NCBI RefSeq assembly: GCF_001677475.2
Contig: NZ_CP015229.1
Strand: one strand, 5' to 3'
DNA length: 64,000 nucleotides
Source of the DNA: Escherichia coli
GTDB lineage: Bacteria; Pseudomonadota; Gammaproteobacteria; Enterobacterales; Enterobacteriaceae
Shown: piece after piece, positions 48,001 through 51,000 of the stretch
Position numbering within the stretch: position 1 is the stretch's first letter
Layout of the letters: each line of letters starts with the position of its first letter
Made by a program: the position numbers

Positions 48001-51000
48001 ATGATTCACGTCTGACATCCAGGTGGAAATCATCCTTATATCTATCATAAAAGGATGATAAAAAAGGATTTTCCAGCAACGCGGAATATTCATTTCTTAC
48101 CCCAGCACAACGGTTATCGCCTGGTTTCAGCGCTTCACCAACCTGCCATGCTGCCATTTCATGCACCCATACAACCTCAGAATCATGGTCATAGCTGCAA
48201 AAACCAGCCTCGCAAGCCATTTGAAGCCCCTTAGAAGCCCCTTCAGGATCAAGTCCGGTTTCGTGAGCAATGTACAAAACAGGCAGGTAATAAAGGCCCA
48301 GCATATTGGAATGAGGCGAGGTCATCATATACAACGCCACTACCATACATTCCGGACCAGACTTCCTTAGTTTTCGCCCTGTATCGCCTAACCAGAACTG
48401 AGGTGAAATTGTTGCGTAATTACGCATAGTCCCCTCGCATACAAGATTTACTCCATACCGCAGACGGTCCCGGTATCTCCCGGGTTAACCCAATCGGCTT
48501 CAGGCTGCTGCGGTTGGTGTGACTGCACATTGGTGTGACTGCACATCTTCACAGACGGTCCCGGTATCTCCGGGTTAACCCAATCGGCTTCAGGCTGCTG
48601 CGGTTGGTGTTGTTGCTGGCGAAATTCTTCCAGATGTGGCAGAATTATTACCGTGTATTGCTCCATGCCCTGCCTGAATATCAGATATTCATCAGGATTT
48701 GCTCAGAACGTCCGGCCCCAACCGGACGTTTTTTATTTGCATGAACGTTAATGGCATGCTGGAAAGCCCGGCTGATCGGACTGATATCAGATGCCATCTG
48801 GAACGCGCATAAAATCGCCGCGATGTATCGCCAGTCGGTACGACTGACCTTCGATTCATGGCAGCCAATCATCTTCGCCAGTCCCCTTTGCGTCAGAGCT
48901 GACAGGTTGATAAGTAAATCCGTTTCAGCGCGATCGATATCGCGCTGCGACAGTTTGCTGTAACTTGTTTGTGACATTTCTTATGATTCCAAATAGTGAA
49001 TAGTTAGTTGAAAGGTATGCGTGGAAACGCATATGGCCTTAATTGGTCAGATATCTTGGGCCTCGCTTTTCAGCGACGTAGGACGAATGTCCATTGTGAA
49101 AAGAGCAGTGTTAATTGAGCTTATCGTTGACGATCAGGATTCGCTACATTGCGTAACCATTCGGCGGTAAATTTGCCATCAGATGCATTGGCGAGAATTT
49201 CCGAATAGTTGGTTTTCATCGTGTATTCGGTGCGAGGTAACGCTCCGTTTTTAACCCACTTATGAATTGCAACATTTGACAACCCGCATAAACGGGCAGC
49301 GACTGTTTGACCACCAACAGCTTTTACTGCGAATTGTATCGGATTCATACTGCTATCCATTAATTTAGTTAACTTCGAGTTAATGTTAACTATTAGCTGA
49401 CAGTTATGTCAACTATGTTTGATAATTAACGTATGGTTAAAAAAGATGAACTAAAAGAAGCGTTCTCAAAGAGACTACTACAGGCATTATTAGATGCAGG
49501 TGTGGGCGGACGCGGTCAGGCTAAGCGGATTCAGAATGCAATGAAACTGCGAGGCATTGATATCTCTGAACCGGGGATCTGGAAATGGCTTAATTCTGCA
49601 TCAATTCCAGAAAAAACAAGTATTTTGGCACTTAGTGACTGGCTTTCCGTGAGGCCGGAGTGGTTGGAGTATGGCAGTAACGAGCCATCCGTAAAACAGC
49701 GACCTTCAATTCCAAACGAATCAGAATGGGGTTCCCTTGAAACTTGGGACAGAAATACACCACTACGAGATGATGAAGTTGAGGTGCCATATCTGAAAGA
49801 CATTGAGTTTGCATGCGGTGACGGAAGAGTTCATTGCGAAGATCATAATGGTTTTAAATTACGCTTCTCAAAAGCAACCCTGCGCCGTGTCGGAGCTAAC
49901 AGTGATGGTTCTGGTGTGCTTTGTTTTCCGGCTACTGGTGATAGCATGGAGCCCGTGATACCAGATGGAACAACAATCGCAGTAGACACAAACAACAAAC
50001 GTATTGTTGACGGCAAACTCTACGCCATCGCACAGCCTGGTGTCGGTGATGAAAAACTGAAGCGTATAAAACTATTGTACAGACGCCCCGGTGGAAAACT
50101 AATCATACGCAGTTATAACAGTGAAGAGTACCCTGACGAAGAAGCAGATACTCAAAGCGTGGAGATTATCGGAAAAGTTTTCTGGTATTCAGTTCTGCTT
50201 TAGCCCCTCTCCCCCCGGCCTCAGAGCCGGGTTTTTTATTAACCCAGCTAGCCAAAACTCATCTATCCTAGCTTCTATACCCCTTCATACTTGATAACCG
50301 TCGCTCACCGAACAAGCAATAATAATTAACTAAAAATCAAAAACATAGAATTTCCCCACAATAATTTTAACTTTTGGTTATTGACTAATGCTAACCAACA
50401 GTTAATAATCATTTCACCAACAGGTCACCGATAACAACGCGGCCCCAATTGGAAAGCTCTTTAAACAACGTCGAACACTCGACTACGTGGCTGCAAAGCC
50501 AGATCGCCCAACCGCATAAGCTGTCGGGTGCAATGCCGAAGCAATCATCTCAGGGGAGGCTTCGAGATTGCATCGCCAAAGTTTATTCGGGAGAAATCTA
50601 TGTCCAGAAAAACAGAATTTAAAGGCACCGCAGCTTCCCGCCGCAGAGCACGCAGGGCCGAGCTTCAGGGTCTGGAGGCATCAAGCGCTGATAAACTGCA
50701 CCGCCCCACACCTTCACGGGTGTACTTACAGTGCAAACGCAAAGCCGCAATGCGAGCTGAAGTAGTCACGATAACGACATTAACCAGAAAATATGAAGGC
50801 TCTACTTGTCTTCCAAACACTGCACTTTACGCAGCTGGCTATCGCAAATCAGGAACAATAACAGCGAGGTGATTGATGACCACGCCTTCAGTTTTGCCGC
50901 AAAAATTATGGCGTCCGCTTGCAGAGATTAAAAACTTCGTTGAAAAAATGCCTGATGGTGTTCGCCTTACGGAGGTTACAAAAAAAGTTAAGACGTTTGC

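Follow-up and report, generated by a model that had tools for sequence, protein, structure and literature searches.

In phage lambda the cI message made from pRM is leaderless, the boxB of the nut sites has a GCCCU stem capped by a GAAAA pentaloop, whose extra base has a proposed role in the NusA step, and the operators are 17 bp long, with three sites at OL. In Stx phages toxin output follows prophage induction, and the N protein of phage H-19B reportedly has a reduced need for NusB and S10. The nutR of H-19B has two hairpins, a spacer hairpin and boxB, and the footprints of N, NusA and Rho were mapped there (PMC3526286). The operators of phage 933W were defined as rotationally symmetric 15-bp sites in which positions 2-5 and 2'-5' are conserved, and two such sites make up its OL, with no OL3 (PMC3317979).

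Here we describe a region of Escherichia coli DNA (assembly GCF_001677475.2, contig NZ_CP015229.1), analysed within a stretch of 64,000 nucleotides referred to below as the window. The region is, with a probability of roughly 0.88, the early-control centre of a lambdoid prophage of the Stx-phage type, in which nutR and the repressor operators are two separate conventional devices; it is this region that decides between prophage silence and the switch to lytic growth. Most closely related to it are phiSTEC1589-Stx1c, POCJ13 and 75/02 Stx, Stx1-converting phages of E. coli and Shigella. The publications matched for the POCJ13/phiSTEC1589 immunity type are, judging by their titles and abstracts, genomic or comparative, with no experimental paper found among them. 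The control signals are of known design, and their description is a routine annotation of a well-understood switch; the sequences, folds, statistics, conservation and homology reported below are direct observations. The genes of the region are as follows.

48681-48977: cII, which together with cro encloses nutR
49121-49348, minus strand: cro, an open reading frame of 75 aa when read from its second ATG, which is conserved
49433-50203, plus strand: cI repressor, 256 aa, with an N-terminal HTH domain and an S24 peptidase domain
50600-50872, plus strand: N antiterminator, 90 aa, with the arginine-rich motif (ARM) GTAASRRRARRAELQ

The start of cro was set at 49348, the only ATG kept among relatives. 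Its product is 37% identical to 933W Cro (E = 2e-16) and matches the Pfam YdaS family weakly, at 27.3 bits, which is under the curated cut-off of 30. The cI protein matches Pfam Peptidase_S24 (E = 4e-16), and over its N-terminal domain it shares 33% identity with 933W cI (E = 1e-13); no Pfam HTH model matched this domain at E <= 0.01. When the sequences of cI and Cro were compared with solved structures, the hits were only marginal, namely P22 c2 (E = 0.6) and a Xylella Cro-like protein (E = 1.5). The putative recognition helix of cI, (S/T)EPGIWKW, is invariant across relatives. The N protein matches Pfam N_peptide (E = 4e-26) and is close to N of VT2-Sakai; its N-terminal motif presumably resembles that of phage 21 N. 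Among the phages compared, 933W, H-19B and VT2-Sakai emerged as close relatives.

In the gap between cro and cII, the strand transcribed from pR carries a nutR site followed by a further hairpin.

49094-49107, minus strand: nutR boxA, UGCUCUUUUCACAA, read in the DNA as TGCTCTTTTCACAA
49081-49092, minus strand: nutR spacer hairpin, GGAC-AUUC-GUCC, present in the MFE fold
49063-49076, minus strand: nutR boxB, UCGCU-GAAA-AGCGA, a 5-bp stem with a GNRA-type tetraloop (DNA TCGCTGAAAAGCGA)
49016-49033, minus strand: hairpin UAUGCG-UUUCCA-CGCAUA, which follows nutR in the tR1 region

The boxB lies 17 nt downstream of boxA, the first eight nucleotides of which match positions 1-8 of the E. coli rrn boxA (UGCUCUUU; reference derived from PMC3177189) at 8/8. 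The window's boxA aligns with the boxA end of nutR as annotated in the 933W record, where the annotation stands at the homologous element. From the spacer hairpin to cII the sequence is near-identical to that of 933W, H-19B, HK97 and VT2-Sakai. The spacer hairpin itself is identical in these four phages and in the Salmonella phage g341c, and the boxB 14-mer is identical in VT2-Sakai and in g341c, where it is annotated 'Putative NutR'; the nutR module is present in about 170 phage records. The hairpin at 49016-49033 is invariant in 933W, H-19B and VT2-Sakai, its counterpart in g341c carries the annotation 'Putative tR', and we take the hairpin for a putative terminator. The first-pass annotation had described a boxA-like word followed by a GAAAA-loop hairpin between cro and cII. 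The boxA, the hairpin and their place stand, but the loop is GAAA: the pentaloop register was rejected, as a loop of 5 nt leaves the flanks unpaired and the MFE fold consists of a 5-bp stem with GAAA. The earlier loop call was one nucleotide too long, since its last A is paired with the stem-closing U. The proposed identity as nutR is borne out by the alignment with nutR of 933W and H-19B and by the presence of an N gene of the N_peptide family and of a second nut site between pL and N, found by pattern match and fold.

50456-50501, plus strand: nutL, whole site
50456-50468, plus strand: nutL boxA, GCUCUUUAAACAA
50470-50483, plus strand: nutL spacer hairpin
50488-50501, plus strand: nutL boxB, UGGCU-GCAA-AGCCA

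The MFE folds give two hairpins at each of the two sites, and in both the boxB stem is 5 bp long, carries a GAAA (nutR) or GCAA (nutL) loop and follows boxA by 17 to 19 nt. The boxA word of nutL, AGCUCUUU, matches 7/8 of the rrn boxA positions. The nutL/N region is 83% identical to that of VT2-Sakai, where the nutL loop is GAAA.

Between the divergent cro and cI genes we find three candidate operators and two overlapping promoter candidates.

49369-49383: OR1-like candidate operator, TTAAC-TTCGA-GTTAA, with perfect arms, covering the start of pR and the edge of its -10
49393-49407: OR2-like candidate operator, TTAGC-TGACA-GTTAT, with 8/10 arm bases
49426-49440: OR3-like candidate operator, TTAAC-GTATG-GTTAA, with perfect arms, centred on the cI start codon (49433)
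49383-49412, minus strand: pR candidate, TTGACA-18 nt-TAACAT, 10/12 in the consensus scan
49397-49426, plus strand: pRM candidate, CTGACA-18 nt-GATAAT, 10/12 in the consensus scan

The centres of the three sites, at 49376, 49400 and 49433, are 24 and 33 bp apart. The OR1 arms are invariant and its centre is variable in all 45 sequences (the window and 44 loci), and the OR3-like site is kept in relatives with variable N5 and is placed on the cI start as is oR3 of 933W. The OR2-like site was found via the relatives, where it reads TTAAC-TGACA-GTTAT; it overlaps the -35 of both pR and pRM candidates. As read from the alignment, the pR -35 is kept in all relatives, as part of TTGACA-16-TATAAC, while the -10 of the window, TAACAT with an 18-nt spacer, is poor. 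Both hexamers of the pRM candidate are kept in relatives, and 933W pM is annotated at the equivalent place; since the candidate ends 6 nt before the cI ATG, the cI mRNA is probably leaderless. Two other palindromes of this interval, each of 14 bp, were rejected as operators, namely AGTTAA-TG-TTAACT (49378-49391) and TGACA-GTTA-TGTCA (49398-49411), as only the TTAAC-N5-GTTAA register recurs at OL and in relatives; the second of them is explained by OR2 and two facing -35 hexamers.

A similar arrangement is found at pL.

50367-50381: OL2-like candidate operator, TTAAC-TTTTG-GTTAT, with one mismatch, abutting the pL -35
50391-50405: OL1-like candidate operator, CTAAC-CAACA-GTTAA, with one mismatch, over the pL spacer and -10
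50381-50409, plus strand: pL candidate, TTGACT-17 nt-AATAAT, 10/12 in the consensus scan
50322-50330, plus strand: second copy of the 9-mer ATAATTAAC, a half-site at most (TTAAC-TAAAA-ATCAA)

The two OL sites are 24 bp apart in the window and in all relatives, the OL2-like site is kept in relatives despite a pL-cI distance of 0.9 to 2.5 kb across loci, and the pL candidate of the relatives reads TTGACT or TTGACC, then TAATAAT. Neither the window nor the relatives showed a third full OL site.

The TTAAC inverted repeats noticed earlier in the cI-cro gap are upheld: TTAAC-N5-GTTAA with perfect arms is found twice, at 49369-49383 and 49426-49440, against 0.06 expected. Allowing one mismatch or none, 4/6 sites lie at OR or OL, and TTAAC/GTTAA words number seven in 91 bp here, compared with 2.3 per kb window-wide. 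The tabulation of OR1-OR3 covered 44 loci besides the window, that of the OL pair 41. All five sites occur with unchanged spacing in 13/13 representative viral contigs inspected, which were drawn from the 44 whose cI N-terminal domain is 65-100% identical, so that the motifs are conserved in related immunity regions. In the position frequency matrix of 52 distinct sites, T-A-A-C at positions 2-5 reaches 96-100% and position 1 reaches 70%, and the centre is variable. TTAAC is the predicted half-site common to OR and OL. This agrees with the idea of shared half-sites put forward in the first-pass annotation, with two amendments: the unit is a 15-bp site, and the one at 49393-49407 had been missed. 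The putative operator sequence, (T)TAAC-N5-GTTA(A), would make this immunity group recognisable in genomes and homoimmune prophages predictable, and would allow reporter and binding experiments to be designed.

The reading of the hairpin at 49063-49076 as incidental or as a terminator, with the boxA-like word arising by chance and no functional nut site present, is hardly credible. GCTCTTT is only a 7-mer, for which some eight chance copies are estimated on both strands of 64 kb. The fold of the whole 53-nt nutR has a modest z of -1.74 (the 21-nt piece with the boxB hairpin has -3.35), and Rfam, searched with 47000-53000 at a permissive E-value, returned no nut-related match, only chance-level AgvB, STnc100 and DicF. 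However, the stem has no T-run following it, and the boxA-CTACG-boxB composite pattern is confined to nutR and the expected nutL position, with two exact matches in 64 kb and none in 100 shuffles. The second boxB stem pair is C-G in nutR and G-C in nutL, a compensatory change, and a functional site is further favoured by homology to the annotated nutR of 933W and the experimentally used one of H-19B and by the presence of the cognate N gene. It is less easy to dismiss, if still doubtful, that the boxA of a functional nut site is vestigial and that N depends less on NusB and S10 for its action. In 933W and H-19B the nutR boxA is degraded (CGCUAUUU) and nutL has no recognisable boxA, and the nutR of g341c has CCACUUCC; the nutR module thus tolerates the loss of boxA. 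On the other hand, GCUCUUU is kept in both copies of the window, with the close rrn boxA matches given above, and also at both VT2-Sakai sites, an argument that NusB/E binding is under selection in the Sakai-type system.

For the operators, the corresponding objection is that the TTAAC repeats are a by-product of AT-rich overlapping promoters and the palindromic word GTTAAC. The OR region is indeed 74% A+T, OR2 falls on the -35 hexamers of the pR and pRM candidates, and with all of OR well conserved in relatives, conservation alone cannot separate operators from promoter elements. This objection is nevertheless very unlikely to hold: the 15-bp geometry is repeated at five places in two separate promoter regions, its arms constant and its centres varying in relatives whose repressors are as little as 65% identical, the pL-cI distance differs by over 1.5 kb between loci, and the layout agrees with the footprinted sites of 933W. 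The 9-mer ATAATTAAC, which the first-pass annotation had pointed out as recurring at pL, is present there as well as at 49422, with a third copy at 62910; a 9-mer common to two such AT-rich regions arises in 16% of shuffles, so the match is not significant and carries little weight alone, in keeping with the by-product explanation. The pL copy, at 50322, is off any full operator, the conserved OL operators lying 41 bp downstream of it. An improbable variant of the operator reading is that it marks a third left operator, a lambda-like OL3 with OL-OR looping to OR3. Its left arm is a perfect TTAAC with an ATAA flank as at OR3, and the 9-mer flanks OR3 and OL2 alike in several relatives. However, the right arm, ATCAA, fits at only 3/5 bases, the alignment shows AACTAAA and not TTAAC kept at this position in relatives, and 933W, equivalent in architecture, has no OL3 (PMC3317979); with the 9-mer match itself not significant, an OL3 operator at 50322 is unsupported.

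With five candidate operators and two nut sites, the region would work along familiar lines; operator binding, promoter starts and the assignment of proteins to sites are inferred. The pR transcript would run leftward in window coordinates through cro, giving an RNA that carries boxA, the spacer hairpin and boxB. NusB/NusE (S10) would bind boxA UGCUCUUU, and boxB UCGCU-GAAA-AGCGA would be bound by the arginine-rich N-terminus of N, whose gene lies shortly after nutL; the N-Nus complex would then travel with RNA polymerase, allowing read-through of the terminators that precede cII, O and P, with nutL playing an equal part for the pL operon. The cI dimers, and presumably also Cro, would bind the 15-bp symmetric (T)TAAC-N5-GTTA(A) sites, with OR1 and OR2 covering pR, OR3 covering the -10 and start of pRM together with the cI start codon, and OL2 and OL1 bracketing the -35 and -10 of pL. 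The predicted transcript starts are at about 49376 for pR, 49433 for pRM and about 50416 for pL.

Two details could tentatively be regarded as new, a specificity switch in a boxB loop base and a strong self-limitation of cI through OR3. Loops of the GNAA type are found in the boxB of the window, VT2-Sakai and g341c, and GACAA loops in 933W, H-19B, HK97 and phage 86, and among these seven phages the loop type co-varies with the class of the N ARM, the 4-nt loop going with the Sakai-type ARM and GACAA with 933W-type N. One boxB loop nucleotide on an otherwise identical nutR may be the whole switch between two N classes. If so, the window would hold a natural tetraloop boxB system, which is noteworthy in view of the role proposed for the additional loop base of lambda boxB in the NusA step. 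As to cI, the arms of OR3 are as perfect as those of OR1, and OR2 is the weakest site by sequence. A perfect OR3 placed where a leaderless cI transcript would begin, combined with the weakest OR2, predicts an unusually strong self-limitation of the repressor, which, if true, would correspond to the 'hair-trigger' behaviour proposed for Stx prophages.

The nutR of H-19B, 933W and HK97 occupies, like that of the window, the position between cro and cII, and the spacer hairpin, the CUACG linker, the UCGCU/AGCGA stem and the sequence up to cII are identical or near-identical. The differences are in the boxB loop, which is GACAA (5 nt) in these phages and GAAA (4 nt) in the window, in boxA, which is nearer to the rrn consensus in the window (UGCUCUUU) than in nutR of the H-19B/933W type (CGCUAUUU), and in the N ARM, GTAASRRRARRAELQ in the window and GNSRSRRRERLKAKA in 933W-type N. 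The Stx phages of the VT2-Sakai type and the Salmonella phages g341c and epsilon34 share with the window the identical nutR boxB (TCGCTGAAAAGCGA), the N ARM class and the nutL design; their boxA words differ in detail, and the nutL loop is GCAA in the window and GAAA in VT2-Sakai and g341c. The immunity genes beside the nut sites of these phages, however, are modules unrelated to those of the window.

The comparison with 933W, suggested in the first-pass annotation, brings out the aligned nutR and, at the operators, a common layout with a different half-site. As in 933W, the predicted sites of the window are 15-bp rotationally symmetric operators with conserved positions 2-5. The spacings between the three OR sites are 24 and 32 bp in 933W, where oR3 is centred on the cI ATG, and 24 and 33 bp in the window, and in both cases OL consists of two sites 24 bp apart on pL, without OL3 (933W layout also from PMC5977221). 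The half-site is (T)TAAC in the window and (C)GTAC in 933W (oR1 CGTAC), and therefore the window likely has a distinct immunity specificity on a 933W-like architecture and not homoimmunity with 933W. The DNA-contacting residues S41, K42 and S45 of the 933W repressor (PMC3317979) align to E, P and W in the window cI, and K46 is kept. The C-terminal domain of the window cI is of another lineage, with no detectable likeness to that of 933W cI, and resembles those of phi80 and HK225. With lambda, the region shares the logic and gene order, the succession of boxA, spacer and a boxB with a GNRA-like loop, and a tripartite OR between divergent cI and cro; the lambda pR and pRM stand back to back, whereas the pR and pRM candidates of the window are interdigitated.

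The region around nutR and the operators is a lambdoid immunity region that lies inverted in the window, and the early rightward operon is therefore on the minus strand, where nutR must be read. Its genes, the promoter candidates (consensus scans only) and the nut elements (hairpins of nutR from the RNA fold) are as follows.

48681-48977, minus strand: cII
49121-49348, minus strand: cro, 75 aa
49433-50203, plus strand: cI, 256 aa, C-terminal domain S24 peptidase
50600-50872, plus strand: N (Pfam N_peptide, E = 4e-26)
49412-49383, minus strand: pR candidate TTGACA-18-TAACAT
49397-49426, plus strand: pRM candidate CTGACA-18-GATAAT
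50381-50409, plus strand: pL candidate TTGACT-17-AATAAT
49107-49094, minus strand: nutR boxA, UGCUCUUUUCACAA
49092-81, minus strand: nutR spacer hairpin
49076-63, minus strand: nutR boxB, 5-bp stem, GAAA loop
50456-68, plus strand: nutL boxA, GCUCUUUAAACAA
50470-83, plus strand: nutL spacer hairpin
50488-501, plus strand: nutL boxB, UGGCU-GCAA-AGCCA

Among database records, the nearest to 48600-50900 are Escherichia phage phiSTEC1589-Stx1c and Shigella phages POCJ13 and 75/02 Stx (98.5-98.8% identity), and the cro-OR-cI stretch occurs at at least 99% identity in 13 complete E. coli genomes. The public annotation of phiSTEC1589 starts cro at an upstream ATG, giving 79 aa (window 49349-49360 extra); the second ATG (49348, 75 aa) is the only cro start kept among relatives. 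The pRM candidate stops 6 nt short of the cI ATG, and this codon is not preceded by a Shine-Dalgarno sequence, so a leaderless cI message is predicted.

On the plus strand at 48705-48740, antisense to the cII 3' end, a hairpin with a T-run after it resembles an intrinsic terminator and stands where the oop antisense RNA of lambda ends; an Rfam AgvB (anti-GcvB sRNA) match at 48673-48734 is weak and sub-threshold (20.7 bits vs a gathering score of 56). A direct repeat of ~60 bp (CAGACGGTCCCGG..GGGTTAACCCAATCGGCTTCAGGCTGCTGCGGTTGGTG) is present in three copies (47686-47771, 48458-48520 and 48549-48610), one within the O-like replication gene and two in a small ORF between cII and O, which may represent a duplication or origin-related repeats. 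The CTGTTC hexamer run at 47935-47962 codes for an (EQ)n tract of the replication protein ORF 47345-48427. In the pL operon past N, at 52077-52323 (plus strand), Rfam scores DicF (17.4 bits) and STnc100 (33.7 bits, E = 1e-4) weakly and below threshold; these matches may mark prophage sRNA genes.

The first-pass annotation had proposed a candidate nutR, a boxA-like sequence with a GAAAA-loop hairpin, between cro and cII; both elements are there, but the fold gives a GAAA loop, one base shorter. The minus strand, 13 nt past the cro stop, reads CAC-UGCUCUUUUCACAA-U-GGACAUUCGUCC-UACG-UCGCUGAAAAGCGA-GG, and this RNA folds into two hairpins, the spacer hairpin and boxB. The E. coli rrn boxA starts UGCUCUUUA, of which NusB-NusE recognise the first 8 nt only (PMC3177189), and the nutR boxA is identical to these 8 nt at 8/8 positions. 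nutL, located between pL and N, has the same design, and the two boxB stems differ by one compensatory C-G -> G-C exchange. A composite nut pattern, derived from nutR and nutL themselves, has 2 matches in 64 kb, which are these two sites only, and matches in 0/100 shuffles.

The stretch from the spacer hairpin to cII is nearly identical in 933W, H-19B and VT2-Sakai, and it is exactly the matching stretch that carries the nutR annotation in the 933W record. In the record of g341c, the identical 14-mer TCGCTGAAAAGCGA is labelled putative NutR, and the conserved hairpin that follows it is labelled putative tR. The nutR of H-19B is an experimental system, with two hairpins and footprints of N, NusA and Rho (PMC3526286). 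The candidate, aligned with the nutR of 933W and of H-19B, was right in outline, and the predicted nutR is an already-known module, present in 170 phage records. Similarity to 933W and VT2-Sakai starts at or just before boxA, adjoining the immunity-specific cro, and the boxA words differ (UGCUCUUUUCACAA in the window, CGCUAUUUUCACAA in 933W, CGCUCUUUGUAACAA in Sakai); the boxB of VT2-Sakai, g341c and epsilon34 is identical to that of the window nutR.

The N proteins of the window, VT2-Sakai and g341c share the arginine-rich motif (ARM) ...(T/S)AA(S/G)RRR(A/E)RRA.LQ, and their nutR and nutL loops are 4-nt GNAA (GAAA or GCAA); 933W, H-19B, HK97 and phage 86 have the ARM ...NSRSRRRERLKAKA and a GACAA loop with the nutR stem unchanged. 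This co-occurrence, in a small sample of 7 phages, is the pattern expected for cognate N-boxB pairs and shows the window, as judged from its predicted loops and ARM, in the Sakai-type specificity class, not that of 933W. A natural tetraloop boxB acting as a one-base specificity switch may be a modestly novel thread. In contigs with the same operator type (L011-L046, loci of the relatives), the sequences past pL are quite different from contig to contig, some having different hairpins together with a boxA that is perfectly rrn-like (TGCTCTTTAACAA), which suggests that immunity and N/nut modules reassort independently.

In the cI-cro gap, TTAAC words are enriched ~30-fold, and the inverted repeats built on them, as claimed earlier, were borne out: the register that works for operators is TTAAC-N5-GTTAA, with 2 perfect copies (49369-83 and 49426-40) vs 0.06 expected. 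Copies with one mismatch (50367-81 and 50391-405) flank the -35 and -10 of pL. Conservation was examined in 44 viral contigs encoding a repressor N-terminal domain 65-100% identical, with the five sites checked one by one in 13 representatives. OR1, OR2 and OR3 were found in 44/44 loci and the window, at spacings of 24 and 32-33 bp, and the OL pair, 24 bp apart, in 41 of them, even though the distance from the cI start to the downstream pL varies from 0.9 to 2.5 kb among contigs. The middle site was recognised via the relatives, which have TTAAC-TGACA-GTTAT; OR2 of the window (49393-407) is degraded to TTAGC-TGACA-GTTAT, and a strong OR3 with a weak OR2 may be another modestly novel thread. 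Among 52 distinct sites, T-A-A-C at positions 2-5 is conserved at 96-100% and position 1 at 70%, with the central 5 bp variable. Relative to the predicted starts, OR1 covers that of pR, OR3 that of pRM, and OR2 lies between both -35 hexamers.

A 9-mer, ATAATTAAC, had been proposed as a half-site shared by the cI-cro gap and pL. It does recur (49422, 50322 and a third copy at 62910), and the copy at 49422 comprises the pRM -10 and the left arm of OR3, but the pL copy did not hold up as an operator: 41 bp upstream of OL2, it reads TTAAC-TAAAA-ATCAA with a mismatched right arm, TTAAC is not conserved there among relatives (AACTAAA recurs in our alignment reading), and 16% of shuffles give a common 9-mer between two regions of such composition. 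It would be a half-site at most, and an OL3 here is unlikely. An AACTAAA(T)T motif recurs in the window (50326-50334 and 49360-49373) and in L011-L046, next to OR1 and on the upstream side of OL2. By our alignment reading, some relatives show it in the form TTAAC-TAAA-TTAAC, or as an inverted repeat (AACTAAA-N6-TTTAGTT), both beside OR1 and ~40 bp before OL2; the 15-bp operator model does not account for it.

The motif comparison with 933W gives a nutR that is near-identical from the spacer hairpin on, and the same operator architecture with a different half-site. Annotated 933W operators are 15 bp long (oR1 = CGTAC-TGAAA-GTACG), the OR centres are 24 and 32 bp apart, and the centre of oR3 falls on the start codon of cI; at the 933W pL we read two sites 24 bp apart. 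The Koudelka laboratory described for 933W a 15-bp rotationally symmetric site with positions 2-5 conserved, five natural sites without an OL3, and adjacent sites bound without cooperativity (PMC3317979; PMC5977221). The cI N-terminal domains of the window and 933W are 33% identical (E = 1e-13) and the Cro proteins 37% (E = 2e-16). All relatives share, without change, the segment (S/T)EPGIWKW that aligns with the recognition helix of 933W; in it, S41, K42 and S45 of 933W are replaced by E, P and W with K46 kept, changes that would fit an altered DNA specificity. A search by titles and abstracts found no literature on operators of this immunity type, and the predicted operators are a new specificity inside the known 933W-type architecture.
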